NCBI GenBank assembly: GCA_035291085.1
Contig: DATDTA010000086.1
Location: 1-53,155, forward strand
Reading direction: 5' to 3'
Source of the DNA: Candidatus Nanoarchaeia archaeon
GTDB lineage: Archaea; Nanobdellota; Nanobdellia; Woesearchaeales; GW2011-AR9
DNA: 53,155 bases
In this document: positions 9,001-46,200 of the stretch, piece after piece
Layout of the letters: each line of letters opens with the position of its first letter
Numbering within the stretch: the stretch's first letter is position 1
The notes under the pieces: model-generated
Seen by the model: only the letters and a program-made list of their open reading frames with translations
Database searches by the model: none
What the model was told of the DNA's origin: nothing
Made by a program: the position numbers and the translations under genes

Positions 9001-12000
9001 ATGCCGTCAATGGAAATATCCCCTTTGGGAACCCGGGTAAGATCATCCCACTTTGGTTCTGACCAGAGATTTTCTAGATCTTCTTTTGTGACCAGATAGT
9101 GTTTGATCTTGCCAAGCTCATCTACTAAACCCAAATTTTTTAAACGGTTCAATTCGCTCTCATTGCTGCGATCCACCAAACTCTGCAATTCATCTAAAGG
9201 TGTAACCAAAGGCTCTTCACCTGAACGCACATATTTTTCCGTAATAGTGGCTACCCAGCTCTGGCGATAGGTATCGTAAAGCTCGCCATTAATAATAATC
9301 AGTCCTGTTAAACGTTCGCGCAATTTATCAAACCATATATCTCTAACCGCTTTTTCATTTGCAGCCAACATTTTTTCTCTTGGTTCTCCTTGTTCAGGAA
9401 CATTTCTTTCCATTACAGCTGACATTCCACCAATGGGCATGCCATTCACCATCTTCCCATTTTTTACCGCTGCCAGCACAGTAAGAATCGCGTTTCTGCG
9501 GGTATATTCTGTCATGGTTTCATCAGTCATTTTTATGTCGTGCGGATTAGGCAGAACCATGTTAGGATCGTCCTTACCCATTTCTACACGGCTAGCGATA
9601 AAGTCCCACCGCCCCACGTTCGGGCCGATGAGCCAGTCTCTTAACACCCACATGATCGCCTCTTGGTTTTGTGTGAATCGAATTCTTTCATGCAGCATCT
9701 CGATTTTTATGGTTCCTCTAGGAACCCCAATCTCTTCTTCCAACGCTTTTAACAATTTAGCGATAAGCAATGCTTCTTGCGGAGTCTCAATTTTTGGAAT
9801 ATAGAAATAAATTCCTGAACCATTCTTTTTTAAGGATTCATAATTATTTAAAACATGAATCACCATGGCCGCAATGGTTGCGGGGACTCTTTCCCCGCCA
9901 ATCCACATCTGGCGGTTTCTGATGCCAAGACCAGGCACGCGGTGGAAAATAGATCCCCACTCCCCGCGTGGAAGTTTAATTGAAGATTTTTTTCCTGCTG
10001 CATCTGTGTATTCATGGCCTTCCCATTTACCAGCTAAAACTTCTTTTAAATTTTTCCAAGCAAGGTAGAGTTTATCGTTGTAATCGTCTCCCGCATCTTC
10101 CCAGTCAAACATCCAAGAAGCGGTTTTGGCGTTGATGGCGCTCATCAACATTCTTAAAGCATGGGCTGGTCCTGTTCCTTGCAATCCCGGACGCAAAACT
10201 TCTTGAGGCACAGGGGTTTTATCATTTAATCTCCAACGATTCTCACTATCAACGCCATAAAAATTATCTATTAGACCTTGGCGTATCTCTTCTACTGTTA
10301 ACTCGTTTCCATCCGCATCTTCAATAATTTGATCCGAATCCAAGAAACCATACTTTGCAGTTCCTTCAGAAACAGCTTTCAAGAAATCTCTGCGATCTTT
10401 TAAACGATCTGAAAATTCCGGACCAAGTTGAAGCGTAAATTTCCTAATAAGATCTTCTACTCCCACTGCTCTGCCATTCACAATTCTATTGCCAAAAATT
10501 TCCGGATACTTTCTCCAAATATCTTCACGGATCACTAATTTTTGCGCCCGCTCTCTAAAATTGATTAAACCAGAAGCTGCAGCAAGCACCGCCCCACCTC
10601 CCCAGCTCGCAGCCTGCGCTGCTACAGGCAAAGCACCGCCTAATCCCATAGCATTGGCAACATCTCCAAATGAAAAGCCCCAAAGAAGTGCGCTCACGGA
10701 CAGAAGCCCAAATAATCCAATGATAACAGAAGATAAGCGATCTCCCCTTTCTTTATCTATTTCTATATTAATTCTTTGCACTTCCTCTCTAGCGTCTTTT
10801 ACTTTTTCAAATGCTCTATCTCTATCAGATCTTGATATCGAATTATTGTCTTTATCATTTTCAGCTCTATCAAGTCTGCTCAATGCGTCTCTCAAATCTC
10901 TAGATAGGGAGCTTCTCCTATTATCATCACTAGACCCTCCACCTCCACTCATGCCTATCACACCAGTCACTGCAATCAGAGCATAGTTCGCCTGTTTCGC
11001 TATCTTGTTGACTGACCTTTGGAAAGCAGGAATAAAGAGGTAAGCCAGTACAAACACTCCGCCTCCTATCGCTAAGGAAATGCTAAAAGAATGCGCAAGA
11101 ATAAAAGCCTGAACTAAACTCAAATGCAGAGTCTGAGCTTGCAAAAAACTCCACGCAAAACTCCAAAGCGCTGGATGAGTCTGCAGAAAATATATGAGCA
11201 CAGGCGCAAAAACTACAGCCGTAATAAAAAGCGCGGACACAGTAACAGATTCCGTCAAAGTAAAACCGTTCCCGGGCACACTGGGTCCAGAACTACCGTA
11301 TTTTTTATCAGCTGTTGATCCGCTGCCTTCATCACCTTCGGCAGTTCCAGCGCTCATTCTCGATTCCAAATCTTCCAAATCCGATAAATATTTTACAATC
11401 GCCTGTTTATCGGGATAGATCGGGCCAGATACTAAAAGATGGTAAAATTCAAAAGTTCTCTTTCTATCGGAAAATACCAACTCTCCCGCCCTAGCAAGAA
11501 GACCATCCACCAAACTAACAACATCCTCTCCCTCTGAATCAATCAATGATTGATGCTGTTGTTTGTATGCAGAAACTGCAAAAAGCGCCTTTGCTTGCGG
11601 ACGCACGCCTGAATTGTCAATGCCAAGAAGAGCCGTTCTCATCATAAAAGGATCATTAAGAACGCCGCTCATTGCAATGTTCAGATTCGCAATAAAGAGA
11701 TCGAATGTCCTATTCTCAAACCAAAAGTCAACCACCCCTCTAACTACTTCTTCATCAACCCAAGTCATGCCATTAACAATCGCATCTTCAACGATAGACT
11801 CTACCTTTGGGACGTCGTCGTAACCTCTTTGAAGATAAACATAAAAAGGAATATTGATTTTATTCAGCCAACTTTTGTAGTGTTGATCGGAGATTCCCTC
11901 TTTACGCTCTCTGACCATTGCATGCATGAGAGAAGCCGCCTCTGCTAAACGATCAATATAATGAGGACCATCCTCGTTTAAAAGTTGCTCCATTACCGCT

Positions 12001-15000
12001 ATGAGTTCATCAGAGTTTAAGTCTCGCACTTGACTCTTCGACTTTTCGCTCCACATATCTACATCAAATCCAAAACGATCTGATTTACTTTTCTCTTGAG
12101 CTTTCAATATCCCGGAATCTAAACCATGCTGTGACAACCATGCGTACCAATTGCCTATGTCAAAATCGCTAAAGCCTGCGAACTTCTCTTTTCTAATTTG
12201 CTCAATAACCGCCAAAACTATGGGATAAGATCCTGTTTGCATCGCTGCGTGAATAGTCCTTCTAACATCCTCCAATGAAAAACCTTCGATCCCGGCTCTC
12301 ACTCCCATCATCGCGATGATAGCCGCGGCCAAAAAACGGCGATTCCCTTCAAGAGAATGATCATAGATCCTTCTTAAATCCTGAAAAGGAATTCCGACCA
12401 TGCCAACGCTTTTCGCTAATTCAATCACTTTGGACGACCCTTCAACTTCCATCCAATCCGGCCATGGAAACTCAGTCCATCTGCCTTCATTACCCATCAA
12501 ATTACGAACTAAATAGATAGTAAAGAGCAGGTTCACAAAAGCAGCTTGATCATTCGGATCCCAATCCTGGATTTGGGAGAGTAGAGCAGGCTTTCCTGCA
12601 GCGGCAATAGCAGCATGAGCGGAGAGAGGCTTATATATTCTTCTAGCAATGCCGGTTCTGCCAACTCGTGTACCTTCACCTGTTCCAGATGCGGGCGCAC
12701 TTGCGTTCGTATCTCCTGAATCACCTACTCGGGAAGGAACTTCATTAGAAGTCACATACTGAATCGCCTGATCTATCGCCTCAATCATCATTTGCGGTTT
12801 TGTTGGTCTATCTGCTTTCAGCGGGCTGGACTCAAGGCGGGCGATAAAGCGTTCCGCTTCTGCTCTCTTGCCGCGCAGATGCGCAACAAGATCTTCTGTA
12901 CCTATTGATTCCAAATCAATTCCATGCATCACCCAACGTTGGAATGGATCCTCTGGGATGTCCGCAAATCTAAAGAGTTGTAAACCCAATCTTTTCATAA
13001 AAACAAATTTTCCCCTAGAATCAACGGGTGAATCTGTTAGCTCTCTATTGGAAAATACAATTTCTGTGAGTGTTCTATGTATCTCTGCCATTCTTTCTCC
13101 ATCATAACTGTCATCCAATAGACCTCTAACGGTTTCCAATTCCTCTGATAAAATACTACTGAATGACTCTTCATTTAGTGAACTCTTTGACTTTCTGGAT
13201 GTTCCTATTTCCGTGAACCCATGAGCTACAGCCTGAAGCATCCTAATGTTCGACAGCTCAATTCTTCCTATCAAGTACCATGCAGTAAATGGATTAACTA
13301 AACCAAAACCATTCATTATATGAGCTATCGCCTCCCGAACCTCAGCTCTAAAATGGGGCATAGATATATAGGTAAGTCCAACTGGAGCCACCAAAACGTT
13401 TGGTGTCTCTTCACCTAGCCAGAGAATGTCAGTAATATTAATTGCTTTAATCTCAGGCCCAGAACGTGTATTAATTTCCATTCTCACCGACACTTCATGC
13501 AACTTGGTATTGTAAGTAATCTCAACGACCATTCCGTCAAAAGAATCATATTGATCAGTGGCTTCACCTACTCTCCGCCCACCACGTATCCGTCTTTCCG
13601 ATCCCATATATCCAGCCAAAATATCTAGAAAATAACGAGCTTCCATCGTAAGCGCTGCCTTCCTAACCTGATCTTCTGTCAAAGGGCCTGCTGTTTTTGG
13701 AAGGTCAGTTACTAACCTAACCCCAACAACAGAAGCTATTGGAATACTCTTATCCAACCCCTCAATCCTAAAAGAACCTTCTTCATCCGAATTACCAGTA
13801 ACCTCTATAATCTTAGCGCCCCATATAGGATTTACTGTGAGACTATTTGTAACAATCCTCGTAATCCATGGTGGGTCAGAAAAGTAGATATAGATAAGTT
13901 CACCTTTTTGTTGATGCGATTTAAGAGCATTTAATAAGGCGCTGTTCCCTCCAGTCGAGTCTTCCGCGCCGCTGTCGGACAAGCCTGATGCTCCCACCGC
14001 TCCCAAAGAGCCAAGTACGATCAACTTCAAAGCTATCTGTAACGCATGCATCAAGCTGGATGCCAATGCGCCTGCTCCTATTAAAAAGCTTCTAATGGGG
14101 AAATCATGATCATACACCCCTTCCGGAAATTGACGTATGCCCAGAAAACGCGTTGTAGCCTTAGCTGCCTTAACAACTTTATCTGCCACTGTAGTCTGCT
14201 CACTGGCTTGAGGTTCTCCCATGTCTTGAGTTTCCACCTGCACTTCAACTCTCATTCCTGTCTCCACTACCACAGGTTTCTCCTCAACGTTCGTTTCTCC
14301 GGCAGAGCCTTGTTTCACATCCTCACTCAATGCGCCGGTACCTTCGCGTCCCACCGCTCCTATAGCGCCAAATGCTACCAACCGAACCGCCAGCTGCCAT
14401 GTTTGAGGAGAAAAGATTGGAGCCACCTTGTTGTGAAATAAGAAAACAAACTGATTCACTGCTCTGCGGAAATTTTTGTTGAAAGCGTAAAGAAACGCTA
14501 AACTTACTCCGCCAACAATCACTGCGATAGGCGCTGCGTTTAGAACTACAAACTGCGCAACCCCAGCAACAAATGATCCTTGCGTTAATGCAAAGCGCCA
14601 GATAAGAGGCGCAAATAGTCCTGCTGCCATTAAAACTGCTAGCGCAGGAACAACTTCTGGAAGTATAAAACCACCCTCACCATTATCCCCAGTGACTAAA
14701 TGAGTGGTCTTAGATTGTTTTAATAAACTGGCAACTCTTCTCTCTGCATCTTCAAGGTCAAGCGGACCTGTAGGCGAGCTAAAAGTTAGTCCTATCATTC
14801 CTCGATCTGAAACAACCTGATTAAATTCCCTTGCAATAAAAAACAAAATATCTTCTGGCAGTCTGCCCGATCTTTTTAAGTTAGCGTAAATACCGTGCAA
14901 AACTGTCATGGTTTGATTTCCAACATGCGTGTTTCTAGAAGCAATCCTATGAATCGCTTTTGCAATCTGAAGGTAGAAAACAGGTTCCATGCTAATATTC

Positions 15001-18000
15001 CCAGATTTCATAAGTTCAACCAAAGCCGCAACAGCCTGATTACCTCTTATGATATTCTCTGGCCCAAATTCTTGACCCGCTTTAATCACAATGGATTCAA
15101 GTTCAAGGATATCCTGGTTCGCATAGGCAGCTGCGATATCTTCGGGCCAGCCTTTAGAACTTATGAATTCGCTTAAATTTCTCCCAATGGTCCGGCGGAT
15201 TTGCTCTATGGTATTTTTGTCGCCTAAAGCCACAGGAGCTTTTTGGTGATCCATTGACCTTTTTCCATCTTTAATTTGCTCTTCTTCCAATCTAAATTTT
15301 ATGTCTAATACACTTCTTACATTTAACGCGTTTGGATTTTTGTCTCCTTTACCCCAATCGTGCGTAAGACTTGCTCCGCCTGCTTCTTCCACAATAAACG
15401 CGATGGGCGCCAACTCATAACGCGCCCTAAGTTTATTTTCCAAATACGCAAATACAGCCCTGCCTCCATCTTGAATATGCTGGCTCACTCCATACATATC
15501 CGTAACCATGGCTCCGGCATAACCCTGAATCCGCCCTTGACTTTCCCATTGATCAGCCAAAGAAGGGAATCCTTGCGGCCACTTGGATCTGTAGCCGCCC
15601 AATGCAACGCGAATCGGTTTATTCTGATCTTCTGCAGAGTCAAACTTGACTTGCCCCACATATTGAAATTTCCCGCCCCTCATCACGAACTCGTGCGCTC
15701 CAAAACCTGTATATGCGAAAACAAGCCTTGTCTCCAGTCCATAGGTCACAAAAAATGATGCGACAATATCTCTTCCGCTCGCATTTTCTATGAGACCCTG
15801 TTTTCTTTTGCCCTCAGCATCCGGCGGATTTGGCAAATATAAAAACGCTCCAATGGTTCCCCCGCCTCCGTTTGATTTTACCTTTGTAGAACCGTCCAGA
15901 GGATCGCCGATGAAAGCAAAAATTTTCCCTTCTCCATCCTCATAATTGACTTTCCCTTCTTCAGAATGGTACCCCCAAACATATGGTTTTACCGCAGAAG
16001 CAAAAAGCCCGTCCGTTATATTATCTATTTCTCTTTGATCAGCATCTCCAGAATCAATCTCCCCTGTCTCTTTTCCTCCAGTTACATAAAGACCGGGAAC
16101 TTGCGCGGCAACTCGCTCCACAGCCAACATGGCATTAGTAATATCTTGCCTTTGTTTTGTGTCTCTTAAGAATGAGGCAAGACTGTTTTCTTCAAGGGAA
16201 CTTCCCATTTCAAGCAGGCTGGCGGTCTCTAATTCTTTGGGCGGAGCTCGGCTCTCTCTCAATAGATTAAGGTCAGCAGGTTCCTTAAATTTTGGATCTT
16301 CCGCTATTTTTTGCACCACACCCTTATTGCCTGCATAGAGATGCACCACTGATTCATCCATGGGAACGTCCTCTATCTTTCGAACTCCTTTTGAAGTCAA
16401 TGCAACCGCGTCGCCGCCTGCAGCCTTTACAAAAGATGCAATGAGTTTAGAAACAGACGGAGATAACCCCTCTGCCATGAACCCGTTATTAATTAAAATT
16501 TCATAGAGGTTAGCTCCAAGCCCGGGAATGCCGCTTACTCCGCTATAGCGTGTTTTTAGTGTTGAGGTATTTTCATCAGTTCCCGGTATTCCTCTCTTAT
16601 TGATTAAGTAATAATCTTGAAAAGGTTTAGGCCATTTAATGAAAGTACTGCCTAAAGCAGCTGGAGACTTAGATTCTTTTGTTGCTTTGGATAAATCCAG
16701 TTTATCTTCTCTTTCTACAAATTCTTCGCCATTGTAAGCAAAATGTTTTATCTGATCCTTGCCGTTTGTAACAAGCATGGTTGTAATCGGCCCATTAATA
16801 AATGCGATTGAACCAACCAGATTATTTTCTAAATCATAAATGGCTATAAAAGTTCCAACCGCTAAATTTGATTTTTTCACTAAATCAAACTTCTCTTGAA
16901 GCAACTCCACGCGGTAATAGCCGTAGTCCGAAAGATAACTGAATTCATAATGTCCAAGAATCTCTTTACGATCCTCATTCAAAACTTGAATAGATTTAAT
17001 CTTTCCTGTGGAAGAAAATAGTTTAGTTAAATGAAGAAGAATCTTTTCTTCTTTCTCTCCTTCTTCAACATCAATCCCTTCCAAGATAGCCCTAATTTTG
17101 GAAGAAGCCTGCTCCCTCACCATCATCACAAAACTATTAAAATCTCTATCTGGTAAAGGGCCTAACTCCACAGTGAACTCATCTTGAAAAATAAACTCTT
17201 TATGTTCTATATCTATATCAAGATCCGCAGTCTTATGTCCCATTGGCAAAAGCGCGCCCGAATCCGCCTGCAACCGATTAAAACTTTCTCTTGCAGTTTC
17301 ATCCGCAACCACGAGAGGAGTCACTCCTCTTAATTCTGCCTCCTCAATAATTTTGTTGCTGTTATCCTTAACTAACGTGTAAATCGCTTTATTCGAAATA
17401 TTGTTTCCTTTTAAATGACCGTTCGCCACAATCGCTCCGCCAGGGTTACCCGCATAATCTGGAAAAAGAATAATGTTTAGCTTCATCAAAGTTTCGGAAT
17501 CTTTTTTGCGATCTTTCACCATATTGTTCGCAGAACCAACGATAATATCTACTCCCGCAGCGGCAATTCTGGGAATTGTGTTCTCATTCACCTGCCAGCG
17601 CGCGGCAGAAGGAGAAAATATATTAATTTTGCGGATGCCTTTGTTCTCCAACTGATCCTTGATTGGGGAACCTTCTTCCAGCGGATTAAAAAGATAATTT
17701 GCCTCTTCCCCAATCAACGGAAATAAACGGTCGCCTAACAAACCTTTGTAATATGGATATTTATTTAAAAATTTATCTAACTTTTCTTGCTCAAAATCAG
17801 AAAAAATAACGATCGCGCCTTCTTTCATCAAAAAATCCACAAGGCTGCCGCCCACATCTCCCAGACCCTGCACAGCCACTACTTTACCAACCAAACTGCT
17901 GGACCCATAACGATGTTCTGCCAGAGTTTTCATGGCGCTCAAAACTCCTATGGCAGTAGGTCTAGACGGCTCTTTACCTTTTCCCTCGGCCAAATGCGCG

Positions 18001-21000
18001 CTCACATGAGGGATAATGGAAGTAGGAGCGAATTGGTGCATTTCAAGAATATCTCCGTCTGTAACACCTTCGTCTTTACCAGTTAAAAATCCGCCGTTTA
18101 GGTAAGGAACCAATGCTTCTGTTACCGCGGCAAAATTGTAGAGAGCGGCTTTGCGGGTTTCTTGATTATCCGCCACAGATTTTTTCATGCGGATCGCGGT
18201 TTTAGCCCCGCCCACTTTAAGATTAGCCATTGCGGTTTTAAAGCTCATCTCACTAGACAATTCCAAAGCATCTCCCAGAGCATCCGCGTCAGAAAGATAA
18301 ACCCCGCGTTTAATATTTGTTTCATCTAGCTCGTCAATTTTTACGCGCACCCCGCCCATGGCGCGGAAAGTTCCATCAATGGAATCGGCAAAGCTTACAA
18401 TCTTTGTAAAACGGTGCATGGAAGCATAAGCAGTGTATCCAAGCTTTTCATTTTTAATTTCAAACACCGCATAGTGTTGATCCCATCTTTCTAAAACCTG
18501 TTCACGCAATTCAGGCGACACACCCATCTTATCCAAATAGTCTTCAAAATCTTTTAACTCTCGCAACACTCTAACTTGCGCGCCTTCAAGTTCAATTGTT
18601 TTTCTCCCTTTGGTGATTCTTCTTGGATCCGCGCGAAAATATTCCTGCTCTTGCGGCGTAACCGCAGTAACAGCTTCCAGAGAACCTGTACCCGCAATAG
18701 ATAACCCTATTCCTAAAGGAAGGGTCAGGGCAAGCATAAACATTTTTGAAAGCCGTCCACGGGAAAGGTATCCACGGGATGGTTTTGCGGATTCAAATTC
18801 TGTTGAGGAACTTGAAATTTCCCCTCTAAAACTTTTGGTAAGATAAACAATGACGGCAATGGCTGCAATGGCTGCTCCAGCCACAAGCAGAACTAACCAC
18901 CAGTTTGGTTCTGGATGTTTTTGCGCATTTTCTACAGTTGCTTTAGCCAGTTCTTTAACAAACTCTTTCGTATCTCCGGGCAATGGAAACGTAATAATTC
19001 CAGCAACAATTGCAGATGCAAAAGTACCTGCAGCTAACACTGTTTTTTTGATCTGTCCTAATTTTCCTCCCACTCCTTTAACCACCACATGTTCTGGCTT
19101 TAGTTTTTCTGGTTTGCCTTGATTTTCCACAAAACTGTAATCTGTCTCTATCTCTATTGCGCCATCTTGAGCCTCTGTTTCTTGAACTTGAGACTCAGAG
19201 TCCAAAACCTTTACTTCAAATTTAGACCCATCTTCAAGACTTACCTCTCCTATAGCGCTAGCTCCCTCTTTTCTCTCATTTTCAATCTGGTTTTCTACAT
19301 CCGCCCTGCCATGCGCAAAACCCAAAACTGGAACCACAGTGCGCAATGCGCCCTCCGCGCCAATTTCGCTTATGACCGCGCCGTCCACAACTACTGTTCC
19401 CATAGCTCTTTGCGGAGCAAGCGTTACTTTCTCGCGCATGAACATTCTTTCTAAAGGAAGCAAGTCCCGTTTAAAACTATTTAATGGATGATATTCCTTT
19501 TTGATTTCACTGCTTTGCATTTTAGGACGAATGGTAATAAAAGATATGTTCTTTTTCTTTAACCTTTCCTCAATTCCGCTCGCATGATAGCCCCCTGCCA
19601 CTAAAGCTACAATCTGAGTTTTAAAATTCTCTTGGCTAGAATTCTGCTCAGCCGCTATCAGGGATTGTTTGGCGTTCACTGCGCCCAATAAATTTTTAAG
19701 GAAAATCTCGTTTCTTTCTTCAGACAGCTGATTAAATCTTTTTACATTTTCCAATGCTTGTTTCACCGCGCCTGTAAATGGACGCGCCAAAAGCGCGGAA
19801 ATTCCTGATTCAATTTCTTCCGCTCTGCTCACATACTCTTTCCATTCCTCAACATTTAGCTTAAAGTCCAATCCCTTCTTTATTAATCTGTAATCCTTAT
19901 CAGCTTGCGCAACTTGAGCCACCCAAACTCCACGATTGATTTTTTCTTCGTCGTCATTCCCGCGAAAGCGGGAATCCAGTCCGTCTGAATCGCGATTCTT
20001 GAAAGCCATTGCTTGATTGTTCTGACTTCCAATTTCCAAAGCCCAAACTTCATTTTCTAAATCTTTAGCTTCTTGAAAAAGTTTAGCTCTTTCTATTCCC
20101 TCTACTCCAACCAAATATTGAATGTACCGTTCCATGTCAGGAGTCATTTTGATCTTTGCGCTCTTGCATTTTTCTCTTATGCTTTCATAAAACTCCCCAT
20201 ACCCCATTTTGCCTAAACGATACAACAAACTATCTTCCAATAGTTCTGTTAATTCAGTTCGGTTTAATTTTTCAGCTAAACCTTGCAAAATCTTTTTCTG
20301 ATCCGCTTCAATTTTTTTAAAATCAATCTGTTTTTCTAATTTGTATGCCTGCAAATATTTCTCAATATTTGGATAATGACGGCCCAATAAAGAATGAGTC
20401 CTCCAAAGAAATTCAACCCATTCAGCCAATTTTTTGTTGCCAGCTTCATAATCGTTTTTCCACTGGTCCAACTCTTTTAGTTCTGGGGTATAATTTTTTT
20501 CTTTTAATTCAGCCAGTTTCTTCTCTAATCCTATTTGCCAATCTTTCACTTCCTGATTAAAAATTAAAGTATCTTTAAAACTCTTTACCTGCTCTAAATA
20601 AGGTTCTTTATCTTCCACTCCATAAAACTGAACAGACCTTTCTCCACTCTGAGTGGACAACCCTGCTATCTCTACCCCAGAAAGAAGCCCTTCTTTCAAC
20701 AAATAACCAGCCACACCCATTACGCTTTCTTTATCTGGATGGTTTCTCCACTTCTCAATTCCTTGCATAACACCGCGGGAACCTTCCACACCCACAATCT
20801 CCACACCCATTTTTACCGCATCCATTAAAAGATAGGCGATATTTGCCTGCACTCCATAAATGTCATGCGCTTCTTGAATCAAAATCACAAGAGGATTAGA
20901 GGAAATTGAGGAATTAGAAGTTGGAGAAAGAGCTTGCCCGGAAAGCGCAAGTTTATGATCCTCCATCTTTAAATTCAGGCCTTTGGATAAATAAACCCGT

Positions 21001-21416: not shown

Positions 21417-21423
21417 TTTCTTA

Positions 21424-21429
21424 CTCCTT
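21424..21429 (-). promoter_or_regulatory. Shine-Dalgarno site of gene A
   Basis: ctcctt equals AAGGAG on the minus strand, 7 nt upstream of ATG 21416. Confidence 0.7.
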
Positions 21430-21532: not shown

Positions 21533-21718
21533 ATGACACAAAGAACACAAACCATTTTGCAAGAAATTGCCTCTTTAACTGAAGAAGAACGGGAAGAGTT
21601 ACTTTCATATCTGGAACACGAAGAAGATATAGGATGGAGTCAACTCTCTGAAAAATCGTTCGCTGATGACTGGCTTTCCTCTGAAGACTCCATCTATGAC
21701 CGATTTCAAACCAGGTAA
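21533..21718 (+). CDS. Small antitoxin-like protein (61 aa) upstream of PemK copy 3
   Basis: MTQRTQTILQEIASLTEEEREELL...SEKSFADDWLSSEDSIYDRFQTR. It has the same SEKSF..W..EDSIYD tail as 2344..2526 and overlaps the toxin start. Confidence 0.6.
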   Translation: MTQRTQTILQEIASLTEEEREELLSYLEHEEDIGWSQLSEKSFADDWLSSEDSIYDRFQTR

Positions 21719-34200: not shown

Positions 34201-37200
34201 ACCTTCAGGAAGATTCCCTGTTTCTAATGGATCAAGCGCTTCAGAAAGGCCTAATGCTCTATCCACTGCGCGAGCAAGCTCTTCTTGTAATTTATTTTGT
34301 TGAACTAGATTTTTGGCTATTGAAAGGAATAGGGCGGAGATTCTTTGATTTCTGCGGATGGCTTGTTCTTCTAAAATTTTATTTATAAAACCTTCAACTG
34401 TTTTACTTAAAAAACGATTTCTGGAAGACAAAGAATCAGCCAAAATTTTCTTGATCATGGCTCCTAACTCTGCGTCTGACCAGACCGCATCAGGCAAGCG
34501 AGCTATTTTATTTAATAATTTTTCAATTTCTCTAAGCTCTGTTTCTTCTATGATAAACAGCGCTTCGGATAACGCGCTTAAAGATTCTTGTCGTTCTAAA
34601 TCTCTTTTTTCCAGAATCTCATCTAAAAGAGTAATTGGTTTTACTTTCTTTGCCTTTTGTTTCTTTACAGACCCTCCGCCTACACTTCCAACGCCTGCTG
34701 CGCCGCTCCCTGCGCTGATCGCTCCAAGACCTATAAACATGAACGCCATCTTCCATGTCTGTGGAGAGAATAGGGGCTTTAAGAATTGGCCTACAAACAT
34801 TGATGTTCCTATAATAGCTGCGATACTGCCAAAACATTGGTTCCAGTCATTGGCTTCCAGACGAGCTAAATAAGCCTGTTGCTCTTGTTCCTCTGTTGGT
34901 TTTAAATCCGCATGTAGGATTGGATCATAAAAGTTTGGTAGAATCCTATCGAGTATTCCTCTCATTGCTTGAATGTGCCAATGATGAAGACTATAAAGGT
35001 CGGCATGATTATTTACATAGACATTACTATTCAATAAACTACTGATGTGAAGAAGATATTCGGGTATTTGGCTGGCTAATGCTTTAAGCCTTGAAGGAAC
35101 AGACTTCATTATTTCTTCCATCCGATCCAAATCCACATTTTCATCGGTCATGGCCATTAAATCAGCAACGATAGAATTTCTCACATCCACTCCCAATATT
35201 TCATCAATCCTTGCGCCAATCTGCCGTTTAGCAATTTGACGATTCCTATCTTCATCTGATCTGCGAGTCATTTCCACCATAGAATCTTCCCAAGTTAAAT
35301 CAGGGCCAGCCGCCGATAAAGATTCCCTTTCCGGATCTTCGTATAGGGTTAATCCATCCACCATTGGCGGTGGCAATAACATCACACCAATAATGTTAGA
35401 AATCTCTTTTAATCTCATCTTAAAAGTAAGAGGTCCTTCAGAATTTCCATTATCCTCTTCACTCCCATCACCTCCACTTTTCACTCTACCACCTCTCCTG
35501 TCAGCAGGCACTCCTGCCCCGCCGCCCATGCCGCCATCTGCTCCACCGCCCACAGCAAGCATGCCAAATAGCGGGAGTCGAATCGCTCTTCCAAGATTCG
35601 TGTTTGCTCCCACTAAGTTTCCTAACTTCTGAACAACTCCCTCACGGAATTTTTTGTTGAGAGTCAATACCAGCGCTAGTCCTACTGCGCCGGCGATCGC
35701 GGCAAGAGGCAGGGAATAAATTTGAATGAAATTCCAAGAAGAACCCAAAAATAGTGAATGAGTTTGAATGAAATTCCACGCTGGACTCCAGAGATCTGGA
35801 TGAGCTTGTAAGTAATACGCGAGCACAGGAGCAAAAACTACAGCAGCAAAGAAAATTGACAAAGCCGGAACCAATTCTGGAAGAGCAAATCCACCCTTTA
35901 GATCAGATTTTCCTCTAGAACTTTTCCCTTTTGTATCAGTCTGTGACTTTGTTTTAAGCAGGGCGCTGATCCTAGAAACCAAATCATCCAAACTTACACC
36001 TTCAGGTAATCTCCCTTTAACACCCTCTATGTGCAATGTGCCTACAACATCTTGAAGATAGCTTCTTCCTAACTTCCTTAACCTTTGTTCAGCAGATGAT
36101 ATTTCATCTTGACCTTGATGCGCAGGATCTTTCCCGAAAATGATCCTAATATCTGCCAACGCCAGATCAAACTTTGGGCTCGGTTTTCTAACCGCCCCTC
36201 GTTCAAACTTATCAAGTATTTCCATACGGAACCAACTGTTCACCTGAGCCTGCGCAAGCGATTCTCTAAAACCCTCTTCCTTTATAAAGCGATGTCTCCA
36301 TTCAGAAGCTGCAATTGCAAGATTGGCCGCAATAAAATGTTTTTCCTGTTGACCCAATTTAACTAGCCAACGCTGAATTGTGGGATCACTGATTAATCCT
36401 TTCTTTATTGCAAGTTCAGCCGTATAATTAATATTAGTGCTTTCTGTATTCTCCGGATCAAGATAGCGATCAAACAATTTTTCTATTACACCGCCATTCA
36501 CCCAGCTCATTTCGTTTTCTAAAGCAGTGTGAACAACATTTGATATATCCAGCAATGGCACAGGAGTATCATGTCCACTGGTTGGAGAACGATGGATACC
36601 CTTAAAGAATTCTTCAAACAGCTCCCGCCAATCTTCATCGCTAAGCCCAGCCTTTTTATTCTTAACAGCTGCTTTCATCAAAGCAAGAGCTTCATAATAA
36701 CCTTTGTCCAAAAATTGAGGGCTTATCCGAAGGTTACTTAGGATTTCTTTTTTAAGATCCTGTCCGCTCAAGCTCTCAATTTTTACCCTATACTTAATCT
36801 CATATGGGTTCTCAGCAGAAATCTCTCCTTTTACAACTCTTTCTGAATAAAACGCTTTTCCCCCTGACTTTGATAAATCCGCAAGCCAAGATTCTATTTC
36901 CTCCTCGCTAATTCCCGGAACCTCCTTACCTTTAATAAAATGAACAATCAAGCTGCGCGCGCTCCAAAGATTGCCACTACTTCTAGCTTTATTGATAACT
37001 CCTCTTATATCATCAGCATTAAATTTTGGATTGCCTAATTTTATTTCAGATATTGCAATGAGACCCGCATCTTCAAATTTTTCAGCTGAAAGCAAACGCA
37101 TGTAAAAATCAAAAATCTCATTGCTTGTAATTCCTGGAACACCGACGCTTCTGGCATCTCTTGCTATCCCTGCGGTAATTTTAAGAAAGGAATGATAAGA

Positions 37201-40200
37201 ATCGTCTTCCGACAATTTCCTTAACCCATGGCTGATCCCTTGATGAACTACAGAGTAGTAATAAAGCAAACGAACAAAAAGATCTCGATCATCTTCGCTC
37301 CACTTTCTAATTCTATCCCCTATTTCTTCTGGATGTTCGGCAACCACTGCCGCCCTGTTCTCCTCTAAATCCGCTTGAGATTTAGTCTCACCTTTATCTA
37401 ATTTTTGATAAAGAATATTAAGCAGAGCAGGAACGCCTTCGGGTTTCATTAAGTCATCAATATTAGGACGTTGGAACAAATCCTCCATAGTTTTTTTCAG
37501 CAAGGGATCAATTCCCTCTACTGTCATCCATTGACTCTGTTGTTGATAAGCCTCTACGGTAAGAAGTTCTGAAAAATAATTTTCATTCCTCTTTTCCAGC
37601 CATCCAATCCAAACAGCGATCACTCCTATATCTGTAACAACCCCTTGTTGTAAAGCTGGAATCAAAACTCGTTCAATAAGATTTTGAGAAATATAACTGT
37701 TGGCAATGCTAGTTTCCATAAACCTTTCCACTATTTTTGTATTCACCCATTTCATTTCCTGTTCCGGACTTTCTTTGTCATCCCATTTTATTTTCCGCAT
37801 GCCAACAAAGAGAATTTCTTCCATATAGTTCAAAACATAATAATAACCGTCTTTTGTGGAGTTGAGTTCACCTAGATATTCATAATATTTTTCAAATAAT
37901 CTCTGATAATCTTCATCGCTGATTTCCTTTTTCATATCCATTGCAAGCGCCATTAAATTGGTTGCTATGTTTAACCGCTCAAGCGATCTTTTTCCATCTT
38001 CTGTTCTGCCATCCAACAGTTCTACTATACGCTGAACCAATGCTTGCGCATCAAGCGCTAAAACTATTTCCTTATCTTCATCCGAAAAATCCAAACGATC
38101 TTTCTCTTTACCAGCCTCACTTTTCCATGAGACCATCTCCTCATCGCTAATTCCTATAATTAAACCCGTAGTTCTAAACTGATCAATCACAGCAAGGAGT
38201 GTATGTAAATCCTTTTCCGGAGCATATTTACCGTGTTGTTTAATCAAGCCATTCACAGCTTCCTTCACATCTTCAATACTAAATCCTGCTAATCCTCCAG
38301 ACACAGCATAAAGAGAGCCCATCCCCAACTCAAAATAATCATGTCCTCTTTTAACCTCATCGTAAAGTTTTCTAACCGCTTGATCTTCTATTCCCGGAAC
38401 TTTAGCTAATCTGGCTTTAAGAGCAACCTCCGCTACTTGCGGAACCCGTCTCCAATAATCCCCAGGATTTTTAAATTGTGAAGAATGTTTGTCACCCAGG
38501 TCAATCGCGCGTTGAATCCTATAAATGTAACGCAAAAGATGAACAAAACGCATCTGATCTTTCGGACTCCAGTTTTTAATTTCAGATATTTTGAGTTCTC
38601 TTCCTTCTCCGGAAGGATCCGTTGCGAACCCGCCCGCGCCCACACCCATAACGCCCATGCTTCCAAAAACAATGAGTTGAGAGCCGCGAACCAGCGCTCT
38701 TCTAAGGAAAGGAGGAAACAAAACATCCAGTACTTTCTTTAACACATAAGCAGTCCCACGCCACAATGGCCGAATGATTTTTGGCGCCTGTGTTTGCTGG
38801 AAGCCGCCCAGGTATCCTGTATTAATTCCTGTTTCATGCATAAATAAAATACCATGAGGCGCAGGAATTTTTTTAAAGTCGCCCTTTGTAGAAATATGCC
38901 CATCCACTGAAAGCCCTTGTTGGATCAGTTGGGCAATAACCACATCCGGCAACCCAATCCCTAGCGTATTAGTTCTAGGTGTCTCGTAGAGTCCTAGTAT
39001 TGGATCATTGGTTCGAACATGAAAATGTTGGATGAGCTTATTGGAACCATCATAGATATAAACGCTAAAGATGCCGGAAGCATACTCCAATTTAAAATCA
39101 GTGGCAGCGTATGTGGTGTAACCATCCTCAGCTAAATTCCTTTTCTTTCCAAATCTTTTTCCTTCAATGCTCCATGCGCCGGTTTCATGATTATAAAGAA
39201 TCTCTAATTGGTCCCACTCAAATATTTTATGCGCTTCGTCGCCTACAATTCCAGTCTCAAGGAAAATCCCCGGGTTATAACTCTTCCATACTTTACCTTT
39301 CTTAATAAGATAACTTGGAATTCCCTCTCTTACAGGAACATGTTCTGAACTATTAGAACTCCACTCAGAGTTTTTGTTACTTGCATAAAGTTTTACGAAT
39401 CTTTCTAATGCCCCTCTCATGCCTCTTGTCCTAAACTGAGGCTGCATTTGAGGCACAAAACCGCCTCCCCCGCCAACAGCAAGCGCGCCCAATAGAGGGA
39501 CCCGAATCACATTGCCAAGAAAAGTGCCTGCTCTAAACAACTGTGATAACTTCCCGACAACCCCTTCACGGAAATTTTTGTTGAAGGCCAATACCAGCGC
39601 TATTCCCACTGCGATGGTAATCGCTGCAATAAGCAACGAATAAATTTGAATGAAATTCCACGCTGGACTCCAGAGAGCTGGATGAGCTTGTAAGTAATAC
39701 GCGAGCGCAGGAGAAAAAACTACAGCAACAGAGAAAACTGCTAAAGCCGGAACCAATTCTGGGAGAGTAAATCCGGATTTAGGGATAAATTTTGCACTCC
39801 CTCCGCCTTGCTTACTTAATCTTGTCTGCTGAGGATCTACATCATTTAAATCCGACAAAGAACCATCCGTACCATGAACTTCATATACGGTTTCAATCTG
39901 AGAAAAATTCCAGAAAGTTCTTTGGCCGTTGGCGCCTTCAACCCCAACCGTTTTATTCTCCAAATTAAAACTGAGCACATTTACGGTTTTGGCAACAGTC
40001 GTAAATGCATTTGCTCCCTGACCATACGGGAATGAAACGTTTAGTAAGATAGTAGCCGGCCAGTTCTTCCCCTCCACCTTTTTAAAGATTTCTATAAGTT
40101 TCCACTCATGCTTTGTAAGCACAGAAACAGAAACAATATTGCGGAAGGGGATGACCTCCTCATTAAAAAGTTGAAGTGTTCTTGAGAATTCATCAACTGA

Positions 40201-43200
40201 ATGAATTAACCCTGCATATAAGCGCCGCTTCGAATTAGAAATATTATGATTTACAGTAACCACTACCGCCTTCCCAAGATCTCTATTTTCGTTAAGCGCT
40301 CCCAAAAATTCAATCTGCTTTTGAGTAGAAAAACGATTTAAGCTCTGTTCGAATAATTGTGATAACAGCTTGACCTCAAAAGAAAGTTGAGCCAAAGCGA
40401 ATTTTATCGCATGCCGAACCCTTTCTACCACATCTGCTATTTCTCCCTCGCTTAACGGCAATAAATCCGCATTCTTTAAAGCAGATAAAAGCGCGCGTAC
40501 TACATTAGAAGGATAATCAGACATCTTCACACCCAAGAGCTCTTCTAACTCCTTAGCATTGACTCTATCGTCACCTTGAGATTCAGTGAAATTAGAATTC
40601 GCTGTATGCAAAGAGCGTGATAACGAAGAAGTAATCAATTTTTCAAGAGATTCACTCCTCTGTATCAACTGGCTTAAAACCGAACTTAATGTTTGTTGAA
40701 GCTGTTGAAAAATAAGGATTCTTCCAAATTCACTTGCGGACTCGAAATCGTGTTCCCCTAAAACCGTAAGAACTCCTTCCTCTATTTCCCGCGGACCTCT
40801 TAAATCCATCCCCAGCAATTCCTTTATCTTTCTATAGAGGATAGATAGAGCGCCCCCTGTTACAGTTCCTAATGCAAAGAATGATCCCGCCTCACGCCAT
40901 CCCACGAGCGGCACAGCATTGCCTACAAAATCCACCGCCTTTCCCGCAGCAAAGGCTGGATCCACAATCCCAAATCCAACAAACATAATTGCGGTAAGCG
41001 CCGCTAACATTAGAACCACGATGGTTGTAAGAGCGGTAACACCACCTCGCTCTTTTTTCTTCCAGCCTAAATAAAATAAGAGCGCAGGAACGCCAATAGC
41101 AAGAGCTATTCCCCAATATTTTGTGAAAAGATAAACTATAGAATCGAGCGTGATCCCCATACTAGGAACGTTGCTAGCCAAAACATAAAGGGCAGCCACT
41201 CCCATCGCGCCAGCCAGCGCCATAATAATAATAGGTGTTTTCCCGATCCCTCTTTCATTGGTTCGTCCGGAATTAGAAACGCTGGAACTTTGGGAGGGTT
41301 CTCCTTTAACAGCTCCCCCAGCGGCTTCTGCTTTTTCTAACTCTAAAATCTCAAAATCGCGCGGAACAGAGCTAAAATTTAAAACCTTTTTTAAAGCCAA
41401 GCCAAAAGCTGTTGAAGCGCTTAAAGGCACAAAGTAAGAATTTTCAGTAATCTGCACAAGATTTTTTCCAACCGATATGCCAAAAGGAACACCAGGCACA
41501 TTCCAATGTGATAGATCCCCACTCTGGAAAGTTGTCAACTCAATATTCCGTACAAGTTCCCAGTCGCCAAAATCTTTATTTTTACGGTAGATAGAAACAG
41601 TTCCATTCTTAGATAAATCGGGTAAAACTCTAGTAATCTTTGCAGTGCGGTCTTGAGAAATATATTCAAAAGATTCAGCATGAGTAAACTCTCTTACAGG
41701 AATATACCCTTTACCAATGACATTGAGGGGAAGCGACGATCCTCTTTTAATCTTTTTCCATTGGAATTTATGATCATTATCGGACAATATGGGCCACATC
41801 CGCTTTGCTATCGCGGTTTGTTTAGAAAAGGAACCCTCTCTTAAAAGTGATTGAGTTAATCTGTTTAAAGTCGTGAGAACTACCCCAACACTCGGACTAT
41901 TTTCCTCCAGCTTAGAGATCGCTTGACCTAAAGCGCTGTTTAACAATCTCGCTTCATTTACGTTATAGCCATGAAAATAATATTCAGAGAGATAGACCAC
42001 TAGTTCCATGCGCTCTTTCATCGCTTTTAAAAGCTTGAGCATGGACCCTCCAAACTCAGACTCTAAGTTATTAAAATTAATGCGGATATAATCCGCAAAG
42101 CTTGAAACTTGGCTTAGCTTAATGCCGATTATTTTTTCTATAGCAGCATCGTTCCGCTCCCACGCCACAGCTTTGCTTTGAGAACCAGCAGCTTTGCCCG
42201 CGCCGCCACTTGAAACAGTGCCCGAACCCATTCCACCCACACCGCCACCCACACCACTGCTCATGCCAAGCGCACCCAATAATGGAACTCGAACCGCATT
42301 GCCAAGAGGGGTGCCTGCTCTAAACAACTGTGATAACTTCCCGACAACCCCCTCACGAAAATTTTTGTTGAAAGCAGAAAGTAGAACAAGAACGGCGCCT
42401 CCGATAACAAGCGCGATCGGTAAGCTATGAGAGAGAAGTTGAACAACAGAATCTAAAGTTATGCCTGATGTTTGGATTTTGTGTGCCAAAACAGGAATCG
42501 CAGCTGCGCCAATGACCGCCGTCACCGCAATAAGAAGAACAGGGGTCGTCACAAAACCACCCTCGCTGGTCGGTTTACGATGCGTTGCAGAATCTCCAGA
42601 ACCTTTAACATCCGGTTCGGAAGGAGATTGGGCTAACTGTTCACCGGCATCCGCAGAATGACCGAGAGATCTTCGCCTGGCTTTCAATTTTTCTAGAGCG
42701 TCTTGAGCTTTTTTAATCTTGTCTGAATATTGATCATATTTCGGATTGGGCACGCTTCTCATTACAGGGCGCCATTCGTAATTATCAAAATAATCAACAA
42801 GTTCCCACATAGTTTCTCCTGTAGGTTCAGAGAAAAAACTTGGAATATATGCTAGACCCTTCACCATCTTAGAAATAGAGTATTCCAAGTAATCTATCGC
42901 TGTTTCAATTCCTAACTTAGCCAACCATTCAGACATATTACGGTCTAAGTCCTGCCTAAGAATAACTTGAAGCACAGATCCATCGGCAGTATATTTAGTT
43001 CCGCTTAATTTCTTCTCTAATGTTTTATGTGCTTCTTCTCTTACCGATTCGTCACGGTCATGTAACGATTTCAAAATCATTAAATAGATGTTTCTATCAT
43101 CCCAACCTCCAATCTTACCTAGAGCCCTCACAATAGCCTGACGAAAATCAGCATAATAACGTTCTGATCCTTGGCCATACGTTAAACTCTCACTTAACAG

Positions 43201-46200
43201 TAGATCAGATATCTCGTCTCCCATTCTCCCTAAGGCTTCTTCTGCATTTGAACGAACCTTAGGATCATAATGTCCTAAACTCTCATCTCCCATTCTCCCT
43301 AAAGCTGCTAATGCAGCTAAACGAACCTCTTTACTTTCATCGCTTAATCTCTGGACTAGAAGTGGAACAGCTCTTTTATCTCCTAAACGAACTAATAAAT
43401 CAGCAGCTCTTTGGCGAGTTACAAAATCTTTCTCGTTCAATAACCCCTTAATATGCTCAAAGACTTCCTCACCCCCTATCTTAATCAATGCTATAATAGA
43501 CCACCCATATAACCAGCCGCCCGATTGCTCAATCAACGGCTTCACTGCCCTCTTATCCTTTAGTTCACCAGCCCTCACGACAGCAGCGTGGCTCACTTCT
43601 GGTCTTCGATGATTAATATATTTGATTACCTTCTCAACATTATTTTCCCCGTGTATCTTTGCGATTAGATACCTTTGAGACCGAGTGATTCCAAGCGCCG
43701 CCAACAAACTCAAAGCTAAACCAAGAACCGCTAAAACTAAAGGATTTGAAAAAACTGTTAACCACGAATAAATGATCGCAAAATCAATTGACGGCCATCC
43801 AAAAACCAAAACCGTCGGCTGAGCCTGCAAGAAATGCAAGAGTACAGGAGCAAAAACTACAGCAACAAAGAAAATTGCCAGAGCCGGAACCAATTCCGGG
43901 AGAGAAAATCCGGATTCAGATCTATTTCCAGACCTAAGAGCATCTAGACCCGGAAGATTTTTCTCGCCATAAGCAATGGCAGTTAAACCAGCTCCGCTCT
44001 TGAATGGCGGAACATAATCTTTGGCAGGCAGACCTTGCCGATAGTATTCCTGATAATAGTTCCACTGAATCTCCATTCCATTCTTTATATATTCCTCTGG
44101 AACAAACGCCTTGTGCAAGGCAGTGAGCTCTCCGCTATAATTGCCTAAGACAATCGCATAACGGCTAAGTTCTACTTTATTGTCCCCCATGGCATAAGAC
44201 TTGGATTTTGCATCTGTGCCTGAAGGTCTGATCTCAAGAACCTTATTAGGAAATTGAAAGAAAACACCATCCCCTACAAAATAAACCTCTTTCAAATCAC
44301 TAAAATTCACACGATCTTTTTCAAATGTTTCATTTAAAATATCAATAATCTCTCTCTTCTTTGTATGTCCATCCCTATAAGATAAAGCCATGCTTAAAAA
44401 GAATAGATAATTCTTCTCTCTTTTCGCCTCACCCTCTTTTTTCTCAAGTTTTAAAAGTTCTGGATCAGTCTCATTTTGATTGTAATAAACCACATCTTCC
44501 CTAACGTCAAATTTTCCTTTAATTTGAGATTGCTCAAAAACCTGATTTAAATAATCTGACAAGAAAAGATTTTCACTCTCAAGCTTAGCGGCTAAAGCAG
44601 CTTGGATAATTAACATCTCTCCATCGCTTTTTTCCCGCATGCCAACTGCAATTCTCCCTGCTTTGCTTTGGATCAGCTCTTCAGGCCCCATCACAGCTCC
44701 GCCGGATTCTTCCCCTGCTAAAAGCATGCGCGGCTGAATTCCAAGATTTATCTCCCTGCCAAAAACATCTTTAACAATTACAGGAGCATTTGGGTCCCTC
44801 TTAATTTGAGCTTCAATTTTTCTCTGCATTGCAGCGATCTCTTTAAATCCAACTGGAACATTCAAAACATGCACCCCATTTTTCTCTGCCCATTCTCTCC
44901 ATGCAAGAGAAGATGCTGTAGTCATAATTAAAAAGCGCGGATGTTTTTCCCATAATCCAGCATCTTTTAATGCCTCTGCCTGATAAACCATGGTTAATAA
45001 GAAAGATTGGTTCGGAGTATAAAGAGCTAAGATTCGATCCTCATCTAAAACAAGAATATCAATGCCAATCTTACTTAAAAATTCCGCTCTTTCACTCGAC
45101 TCAATTTGCGCTGTGACTAACCTGTCTCCATCTGGATCCACCATCAATACCACAGTGCCAACAGCTTTCTCCTTTAATAACGTGTCATACCCCATCCGTT
45201 CCATCACAGGGATAGAGAGAACTTTTCCTGTCTCCTTATCTCGTTTAATAATAGTGGTGTCTTGAGAATAGTCAGCGACCTTTCCATCTTTTAGCTCTTT
45301 TCCAATTCCGTGAAAGAAAGAATCTTCTTGAACTCTAAACCACTCGAAAGAGCTATTAATCCCAAGTTTTTCAAAAATTTGACTTGCAGTCCTATGGAAA
45401 CCACCGCCCACATTATCTACAATAATTTTTTTCTTAACAGATTTGATTCTTTCTAAATTTATATCTGTAGCCACGCCATTTTTTAAATAAGAAATATAAA
45501 GATCAGTTCCATCTTGAAGCTGTTCCATGAATGCTTGATCAATCAAAGGATCATCTGAAGCTGCGATTTCAAAATGGTATTCACCTTGAGCTCTGGCAAT
45601 CTCAAAAATCTCCCGAATCTTGGCAACAAATCTCAATGATTCTTCTGGAAGATATTGACTTCCCTCTTCATCAAAATCTTTAGTTGCAATAAAAGAACTT
45701 ACAGCATGAGAAGAGGTGACATATTCCGCTCCTGCTAAGTCATACATAAAAGTAAGAAAAGATGCCATCCAAACTGGAATGGTTTGTCGGCCTCTGGGCA
45801 AATAAGTTTTAATGCCTTGAGCAGCTTGGATTCTAGCTATGAGATCAACATAGAGAGAAGTGTTGTACCTTACTTCTCCGCCAGCAACTTTTTCAATTTG
45901 ATGATCTGGATACCTTTCTTTTGCTACTAAAGCCTTTGCTAAAGTTGCTAAAGCAACGCCTACAAGATTAATGCGGAACCGAGTATCCCAAGGATAAAGA
46001 ACATTTTGACTGAGCCTAATTCCAGCTGTTGCAACCCTTGCCTCTTTTTCATAATCTTCCAGCCATTTATCTAGTCCAAGACCCTCTGTATTAGTTTCAC
46101 TATAAGGCTCTAAATGTTCGCGTTTTAAAGTTACTGTAATTTTACCTTTATCAGTAATATCAAAAATCTTATTTTGTTTAACATGTTCAGGCGTGCTTGC

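Follow-up and report, generated by a model that had tools for sequence, protein, structure and literature searches.

Why do seven helices that resemble the type IV prepilin (class III) signal lie deep inside two giant proteins, and do they mark points of cleavage or anchor the chain in the membrane? The question is raised by a stretch of 53,155 nucleotides (contig DATDTA010000086.1 of assembly GCA_035291085.1, positions 1 to 53,155, filed under Candidatus Nanoarchaeia archaeon), hereafter the window, in or at which three giant genes, A, B and C, lie on the minus strand. An earlier note on this DNA had pointed out the motifs in A and B, and had proposed that the two proteins are polyproteins cut into pilin-like subunits or, more modestly, that a pilin-like N-terminal helix has been reused as a membrane anchor. 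The modest proposal fits, since the motif helix is always the first of a hairpin that recurs between enzyme blocks. We consider it probable that this hairpin is a reusable two-helix membrane staple with a pilin-like first helix, which is the best reading of the locus.

Seven motif-bearing hairpins

The sites noted earlier, in which G/F-x-x-x-E (the stroke marking the presumed junction) is followed by a hydrophobic helix, were all recovered at the codons given in Table 1 by a regular-expression search combined with Kyte-Doolittle hydropathy. Genes A and B hold 11 matches to G-F-x3-E, and only the seven named sites are followed by a hydrophobic 19-mer with a Kyte-Doolittle mean of at least 1.6. 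When the residues were shuffled, 4.5 matches were expected, and 0.04 with the helix; when the helices were held fixed, the chance expectation was 0.11 sites. With seven sites seen against 0.04-0.11 expected, the pattern is real and not a product of chance. Gly at -1, Phe at +1, Glu at +5 and the hydrophobic stretch were likewise confirmed in every copy, the helices having a Kyte-Doolittle mean of 2.2-2.8 over 19 aa. Val at +7 is also invariant in all seven, while Phe at +19 and Pro at +21, the latter recalling the Pro22 of pilins, are present in six. Pro at +4 and +8, which is atypical of pilins, is found in four copies, and three have Glu at -2 or -3 with few basic residues upstream. The sites are deep inside the open reading frames (ORFs), between aa 2249 and 8598, and none has an N-terminal position behind a short basic leader.

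Every motif helix is helix 1 of a repeated two-helix hairpin of about 75-120 aa. From N- to C-terminus this module consists of a flexible linker rich in Gly and Ser, in many cases with Lys or Arg, helix 1 (consensus G-F-x-L-P-E-L-V-P-A-L-A...F-A-P-V-L), a loop of 7-27 aa with no or one charged residue, helix 2, a basic tail and a Gly-rich linker. In most copies the tail reads N-K-N-F-R-E-G-V-V-x-K-L-x-x-L-F-R-x-G-T-x-L-G-N-x-V-R-V-P-L-L-G. The seven sites are therefore paralogues within one conserved module family, not independent events. Pairwise identity between copies is 32-69% for protein and 39-82% for DNA (positions -8 to +30), which indicates that the duplications are old. Copy B7672 is a far outlier: its helix, FTLLETVGTIAILFIG, is the most canonical and pilin-like, its tail is different, and its nucleotide identity to the other copies is about 40%.

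Gene B contains four further copies of the hairpin without the full motif (Table 1), and motif-less versions are found at corresponding places both within these proteins and among their relatives. As had been noted earlier, every motif stands ahead of a block of globular domains, but always with a second membrane helix in between. An AlphaFold2 model of the module was all-helical, with the helix beginning at L+3, but its confidence was low (predicted local distance difference test, pLDDT, 64), so that it is uninformative on the motif.

Table 1. Hairpins, giant genes and repeats of the window. Positions count from its first letter; motif-bearing hairpins are named after the gene and the residue of the site; TM1 and TM2, first and second membrane helix; a stroke marks the G/F junction.
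Feature	Position	Strand	Gly codon	Remarks
Hairpin A2249 (gene A)	14427..14672	-	14670-14672	GEGG before site, TM1, 9-aa uncharged loop, TM2, FNKNFRRAV
Hairpin A3384 (gene A)	10977..11267	-	11265-11267	PGNG before site, TM1, uncharged loop, TM2, RSVNKIAK
Hairpin B3078 (gene B)	43648..43911	-	43909-43911	SESG/FSLPELVPALAIF TM1, loop, TM2, RSQRYLIAK
Hairpin B4457 (gene B)	39463..39774	-	39772-39774	PKSG/FTLPELVPALAVF TM1, loop, TM2, NKNFREGVVGKLSQLFRAGTFLGNVIRVPLLGALAV
Hairpin B5751 (gene B)	35539..35892	-	35890-35892	LKGG/FALPELVPALSIF TM1, 27-aa loop, TM2, NKKFREGVV
Hairpin B7672 (gene B)	29908..30129	-	30127-30129	PKSG/FTLLETVGTIAILFIG TM1, 7-aa loop, TM2, RRNRSR
Hairpin B8598 (gene B)	27082..27351	-	27349-27351	GETG/FTRTELVSSIAIL TM1, 7-aa loop, TM2, NKNFREGVVSKL
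Motif-less hairpin, B ~2124-2242	46417..46773	-		TM2 then NKNFREGVVSKLAELFR
Hairpin with E+5 lost, B ~3529-3632	42247..42560	-		EGG/FVTTPVLL; G, F, P+21 and NKNFREGVV kept
Motif-less hairpin, B3966-4036	41035..41247	-		39% identity to B3525-3600
Motif-less hairpin, B7908-7990	29173..29421	-		HFVLPKIFPVPLF then LNKNVLSKRKR
Giant gene A	3009..21416	-		ORF, 6135 aa
Giant gene B	22243..53142 as ORF (feature to 53155)	-		at least 10299 aa within the window, runs past its right end
Giant gene C, 5' end	1..1404	-		8020 aa in source contig
~330-aa repeat, A aa 2935-3260	approx. 11637-12614
~330-aa repeat, B aa 4847-5198	approx. 37549-38604
~330-aa repeat, B aa 5264-5612	approx. 36307-37353
~330-aa repeat, B aa 8162-8507	approx. 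27622-28659

Orientation and likeness to prepilin signals

The distribution of basic residues around the hairpins is uneven. The 15 aa upstream of the Gly contain 1, 2, 2, 3, 5, 4 and 0 Lys and Arg in the seven copies, the loop between the helices 0, 0, 0, 0, 0, 1 and 0, and the 15 aa past helix 2 3, 3, 3, 3, 4, 4 and 3. By the positive-inside rule this pattern points to a translocated loop, with both flanks of the hairpin and the G/F junction on the cytoplasmic face. Judged from these local Lys and Arg residues, the hairpin would most likely run in-out-in with cytoplasmic flanks. A junction on the non-cytoplasmic face had been named as grounds for discarding cleavage by a PilD-type peptidase; the local analysis predicts the cytoplasmic face, so that access of PilD is not refuted. 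If the chain returns to the cytoplasm past helix 2, however, no product could behave as a pilin. The enzymes between the hairpins (PPDK, PGM-like, GluDH-like, FBPase, malate synthase and isocitrate lyase, with AceK in C) fit cytoplasmic flanks. Enzymes of these kinds act on cytoplasmic substrates, and AceK acts on the cytoplasmic isocitrate dehydrogenase.

The likeness of the helices to prepilin signals was evaluated on 43-aa excerpts of the seven sites, using the curated cutoffs of 21.2 bits for Pfam N_methyl (PF07963) and 16.3 bits for NCBIfam TIGR02532. N_methyl gave 19.3 bits for B7672, 17.0 for a second site and 16.0 for B3078, all sub-threshold, with four sites unmatched. With TIGR02532, B4457 scored 22.6 bits and is the sole copy above the cutoff; B3078 scored 14.4, one other site 9.5, and four gave no match. 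The site helices also matched the ComGD, ComGF and GspI profiles weakly. As controls, nine other membrane helices of the same proteins were searched with N_methyl, and none matched at E ≤ 10; full-length protein pieces gave no match to a prepilin profile at E ≤ 0.01. The profile scan that the earlier note had called for thus came out divided: one site of seven passes TIGR02532 and three match N_methyl below threshold, but six of the seven fail the curated cutoffs. The likeness to the prepilin family is specific but weak.

A sequence search of the PDB with the module returned no pilin, only noise, and a helix-1 profile run against 5.8 billion proteins at E ≤ 10 produced four candidates, none of which scored, with no real pilin close. 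PEP-CTERM, GlyGly-CTERM and sortase-type signals were considered and rejected, no NCBIfam model of them matching the helices at E ≤ 10.

No pilus, type II secretion system (T2SS) or prepilin-peptidase genes were found in the window, in the 7.5 kb to its left or in the flanks of the related locus described below; this search covered the window and flanks of up to 10 kb on a contig of 386 kb, but not the 5' flank of gene B. The 10 kb upstream of another giant gene of the family (L009) were equally devoid of pilus, T2SS and prepilin-peptidase genes, and hold genes for NDK, DAO, a deaminase, a squalene-hopene cyclase, a radical SAM protein, Lgt and an ABC-2 protein.

Relatives, cassettes and rival readings

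The module has a patchy distribution among relatives. Its profile, searched against 1.84 billion representative proteins, found gene B fragments only, plus one spurious repeat protein; against 5.8 billion proteins it gave no match, membrane-helix words having swamped the candidate list, and a metagenome scan with the module alignment gave none either. When 185,579 species genomes were scanned for NK[NK]FREGV, the signature of the tail, one locus was confirmed, in the sister species GCA_016180425.1, against five such signatures in window gene B. This locus corresponds to the motif-less copy B2124, the only copy with an orthologue seen there.

The sister B-orthologue is 90.6% identical over B1179-3048, but similarity stops 30 aa upstream of the Gly of B3078. 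The orthologue lacks B ~3049-3960, with two modules, and resumes at a plain hairpin orthologous to B3966-4036, after the PGM-like block. The interval B aa 3049-3960 (~910 aa; window approx. 41263-43998) comprises two hairpin modules, HEAT repeats and a domain of no assigned identity. That hairpins flank this difference of ~910 aa suggests that a cassette was gained or lost when hairpin modules recombined. In the A-orthologue of the sister species (6930 aa), identity is 81.6% over A3557-6135 and the content upstream is different; similarity begins only ~90 aa downstream of module A3384, in whose place there is a plain, different helix (GAQIVTGIVALVGLTAVLSAGLILSS). While the enzyme blocks of the sister species are 82-91% identical, the motif is absent at both comparable junctions (B3078 and A3384). 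Hydrophobic segments are numerous in three other giants with the N-terminal domain described below, L009 (4114 aa read), L010 (2098 aa) and L011 (2473 aa), none of which contains a G[FMLIVY]xxxE-plus-helix site. The conserved feature is thus the membrane hairpin, the prepilin-like motif being confined to one hairpin subfamily that has multiplied in this one species, and the modules sit at breakpoints of cassette gain or loss.

Genes A, B and C have in common a conserved N-terminal domain (N-domain) of ~750 aa with no Pfam match (in A, aa 40-790; window 19047-21299, minus strand). Its named homologues are all labelled 'MAG: Elusimicrobia bacterium', as is the sole related genome locus, that of the sister species, and a cluster look-up of gene B fragments returned no names. 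An AlphaFold2 model of the N-domain (pLDDT 55), compared with the PDB by Foldseek, gave nothing significant; the motifs QEAHD and AGGYHS are reminiscent of ChaN/Tiki/erythromycin-esterase-like proteins, and the erythromycin esterase EreC did appear, but at E about 0.7, which is no evidence for such a kinship. Stand-alone versions of the domain, ~520 aa long and with a signal peptide, occur in other metagenomes (L012-L020). In one of these (L015) the stand-alone gene has as neighbours a PFK fusion of 1177 aa and a PPDK-PGK fusion of 1880 aa, both of which begin with a signal-anchor, as well as an MFS-domain protein of 3086 aa. This set looks like an unfused version of the same multi-enzyme theme.

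The following mechanism can be proposed. Each hairpin would dip into the inner membrane and bring the chain back to the same side, most likely the cytoplasm, so that the enzyme blocks of one very long polypeptide (PPDK, PGM-like, HEAT, GluDH-like, FBPase, malate synthase and isocitrate lyase) would be held, presumably uncut, at the membrane surface. The pilin hallmarks of helix 1 (G-1, F+1, E+5 and Pro near +21/22) could be an ancient co-option or a convergence, and may serve the hairpin itself: Gly as the helix N-cap after the linker, Phe as an interfacial anchor, and Glu+5 at the cytoplasmic interface, where it would face the basic tail that follows helix 2. The module would spread and disappear with the segments that it borders, marking cassette boundaries in a fast-evolving modular protein. 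As a refinement of the staple reading, it may therefore be described as a lineage-specific, mobile cassette boundary.

It should be noted that several observations weigh against the staple. The site helices are recognised by prepilin-family profiles only (N_methyl, TIGR02532 and, weakly, ComGD, ComGF and GspI). G-1, F+1 and E+5 are unchanged in all seven copies, old as these paralogues are, and few columns of helix 1 are as well conserved; a plain anchor has no obvious need for this invariance. In addition, the predicted orientation sets the G/F junction where a prepilin peptidase would act, and the linkers upstream of the sites are flexible and would be accessible to proteases. The global topology is also uncertain: the N-termini resemble cleavable signal peptides, and some flanking charges conflict. 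The same difficulty with topology is reported in two preprints on giant proteins (10.1101/2023.11.21.568195; 10.64898/2026.06.07.730766).

On a rival reading, a PilD-type (A24) peptidase would cut after G-1 at the cytoplasmic face, perhaps N-methylating Phe+1, and release separate, hairpin-anchored enzymes; we regard this as quite unlikely. The motif itself (G-1, F+1, E+5, P+21), the TIGR02532 score of 22.6 bits against 16.3 at B4457, the N_methyl scores of 16-19.3 bits at three sites with none in nine controls, the predicted N-in orientation and the Gly/Ser linkers upstream all count in its favour, and there is an analogy, and only that, in the giant genes of Omnitrophota, which adjoin T2SS- or type IV pilus (T4P)-like loci and small class III signal genes (10.1101/2023.11.21.568195; 10.64898/2026.06.07.730766). 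Yet six of the seven sites stay under the curated cutoffs, three copies have acidic residues at -2 to -3, four have Pro at +4 and +8, and the motif is missing at both comparable sister junctions, in three other family members and in motif-less hairpins of the same proteins. Past the loop of 7-27 aa the chain enters another membrane helix, so that no product could be extracted into a filament, and the flanks read contain no pilus or peptidase genes. A literature search retrieved no paper that ties a prepilin peptidase to polyprotein processing. Cleavage by PilD therefore came through the profile and topology tests, if weakly, gained no positive support and has several results against it; the more specific proposal of pilin-like subunits with enzymes as head groups is thus not supported. 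A third way to read the motif, namely that its helices are interaction elements that bind each other, a pool of pilins or an assembly platform, and so cluster the blocks or dock the uncut giants to a T4P- or T2SS-like machine, appears very unlikely to us: E+5 and P+21 are indeed important in pilin-pilin contacts, and an association with secretion loci has been reported for the giants of Omnitrophota, but no pilus genes were seen nearby in the flanks read, the motif is not conserved among relatives, and helix 1 has too few words in common with any real pilin for a score.

The enzyme blocks might be outside the cytoplasm, as predicted for the 'archaeovorins' of Omnitrophota. The flanks of the hairpins would in that case be periplasmic or extracellular, PilD could not get at the G/F junction, and the giants would be machines of the cell surface. 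A, B and C do begin with signal-peptide-like sequences with A-x-A, the unfused PFK and PPDK-PGK proteins encoded beside the stand-alone N-domain protein of a distant lineage bear N-terminal signal-anchors, and West-Roberts et al. predicted an extracellular location, although they themselves doubted it (10.1101/2023.11.21.568195). We find this unlikely, because 3-4 Lys or Arg stand just past helix 2 in every hairpin and almost none in the loop, and because the enzymes depend on ATP, NAD(P)H, acetyl-CoA or phospho-sugars, the target of AceK being cytoplasmic. Finally, the size of the ORFs could be overstated if internal translation starts upstream of the sites yielded ordinary prepilin-like proteins with short leaders. 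Nothing but the motif speaks for this, and we rejected it as extremely improbable on the evidence of start codons and Shine-Dalgarno sequences: for three of the sites the 40 codons upstream contain no ATG, GTG or TTG, the candidate starts at the remaining four all lack a Shine-Dalgarno-like sequence, and the frames are continuous and identical in four independent assemblies.

The giant genes and comparison with known systems

By exact matching of its proteins the window was placed on contig MGUW01000024.1 (386 kb; GCA_001800165.1), with identical copies in two further assemblies and one Joint Genome Institute (JGI) metagenome. The records L001-L004 are 100% identical to the window, and the giant reading frames are unbroken and identical across the four independent assemblies. 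A shorter gene call in one of them (L003) was examined as a possible split gene and rejected, the scaffold merely having N gaps. The Pfam domains that tile A, B and C are ELFV_dehydrog, FBPase, MS_TIM-barrel, ICL, PPDK, PGM_PMM, HEAT, 2-Hacid_dh and AceK; A and B together have 67 hydrophobic 19-mer segments in addition to their N-terminal signal-like helices, and the signal-peptide-like starts of A, B and C each have an A-x-A site.

The gene A product, called identically with its 6135 aa in two NCBI assemblies, consists of an N-terminal signal-like helix, the N-domain, GluDH-like and FBPase domains, hairpin A2249, a region without known identity, hairpin A3384, malate synthase and an isocitrate lyase with its motif KKCGH intact. 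Gene B encodes PPDK (motif TSHAAI intact), PGM-like, HEAT, GluDH-like and malate-synthase-like domains besides its five motif hairpins; its N-terminus, ~404 aa outside the window, was supplied by a fragment from another assembly (P0008), for a total of ~10,700 aa. Gene C has the signal-like N-terminus and N-domain in common with A and B, and its first 2964 aa contain 2-hydroxyacid dehydrogenase and AceK domains and no motif hairpin.

Across the tandem giants the aceB/aceA/aceK set of functions is complete, with AceK in C and isocitrate lyase and malate synthase in A, and these glyoxylate-bypass functions are accompanied by PPDK, FBPase and a PGM-like domain. This suggests a membrane-tethered route from C2 units to sugar. 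Within the PPDK block of B, the PEP-utilising C-terminal region is duplicated (aa 1211-1551 and 1762-2095, 22% identity; window approx. 46858-49512). A domain of ~330 aa with no assigned function is repeated in at least four copies in A and B at 22-28% identity (Table 1), and is also present in the A-orthologue of the sister species.

The gaps between the giants contain three PemK/MazF-type toxin genes (1621-1968, 2513-2860 and 21666-22061, plus strand), each with a small upstream partner (spans 1396-1968, 2254-2860 and 21533-22061, plus strand), the partner at 1396-1617 being AF2212-like. Other toxin-antitoxin genes (BrnT, DUF4258) occupy the equivalent gaps in the sister species. A 112-aa ORF on the minus strand (window 1960-2298) has a start, MIHFWMRKNNRSWMQLMAAVSFVAVFSYL, nearly equal to the signal-like N-terminus of gene C, MIHFWLRKNNRSWMQLTAAVIVFSFLF, and looks like the leftover 5' end of a giant gene, duplicated along with the PemK cassette. 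The 5' regions of B and C are 96.7% identical over 490 nt (window 52666-53155 against L001 7129-7618), while the proteins are otherwise ~60% identical there, which suggests a recent gene conversion between the two paralogues.

Giant membrane-threaded proteins with many enzyme domains have been described only recently, mostly in Omnitrophota, and the literature explicitly leaves open if they function as a single chain or in pieces. The present locus offers a defined, repeated two-helix anchor module that marks cassette boundaries, seven concrete sites at which a protease of a known class is a candidate to cut, and an Elusimicrobia-labelled example with the whole glyoxylate-bypass set (isocitrate lyase, malate synthase and AceK) plus PPDK, FBPase and a PGM-like domain. 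Should no cutting take place there, G-F-x-x-x-E plus a helix can arise or persist without pilus biology, which would be a warning for motif-based annotation of pilins. Were A24 cleavage true, it would represent a new use of the class III signal and provide the first defined cleavage points for bacterial giant proteins, whose giant precursors would become individually hairpin-anchored, N-methylated enzymes.

Compared with class III signals (PF07963, TIGR02532), the sites have in common G-1, F+1, E+5, some 20 hydrophobic residues and, as predicted, the N-in orientation, and Pro at +21 nearly coincides with that at +22 in pilins. They differ in being internal, with 2,000-8,600 residues upstream and no usable start codon, in that six of the seven are under cutoff, Pro occurs at +4/+8 and some 'leaders' are acidic, and in that a second membrane helix replaces the periplasmic head domain of pilins, with no pilus genes in the flanks read. 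The short motif (here G-F-x-L-P-E) directly before a membrane helix, with basic residues on the cytoplasmic side, is also reminiscent of the LPXTG/sortase, PEP-CTERM/exosortase and GlyGly-CTERM/rhombosortase systems, whose signals, however, are C-terminal and have a single helix.

The giants of Omnitrophota have numerous membrane helices, HEAT repeats and FBPase, PGM and PPDK domains, and neighbour T2SS/T4P-like loci and small class III signal genes; their cleavage into smaller polypeptides has been called open, with no cleavage points known (10.1101/2023.11.21.568195). A 2026 preprint defines 'multi-enzyme metabolic' giants that are anchored by up to hundreds of helices (10.64898/2026.06.07.730766). 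Neither preprint mentions prepilin-like motifs inside giants (10.1101/2023.11.21.568195; 10.64898/2026.06.07.730766), and a paper on groundwater Elusimicrobia (10.1101/765248) mentions neither pili, secretion nor giant genes. Like these 'archaeovorins' or 'class 1 multi-enzyme metabolic clusters', A, B and C are ORFs of several thousand to more than 10,000 aa, with a signal-like N-terminus, membrane helices at roughly regular spacing, and HEAT, FBPase, PGM and PPDK domains. In contrast, their lineage is groundwater Elusimicrobia by NCBI labels, no SecA_DEAD or C39 Pfam match is present in A, B or the first 2964 aa of C, and secretion genes are absent from the flanks read here (the 5' flank of gene B not being among them), whereas the distinct, unannotated N-domain and the glyoxylate-shunt set (isocitrate lyase, malate synthase and AceK) are present. 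The giant proteins belong to a recently recognised kind, within which the motif-bearing hairpin is the new part.

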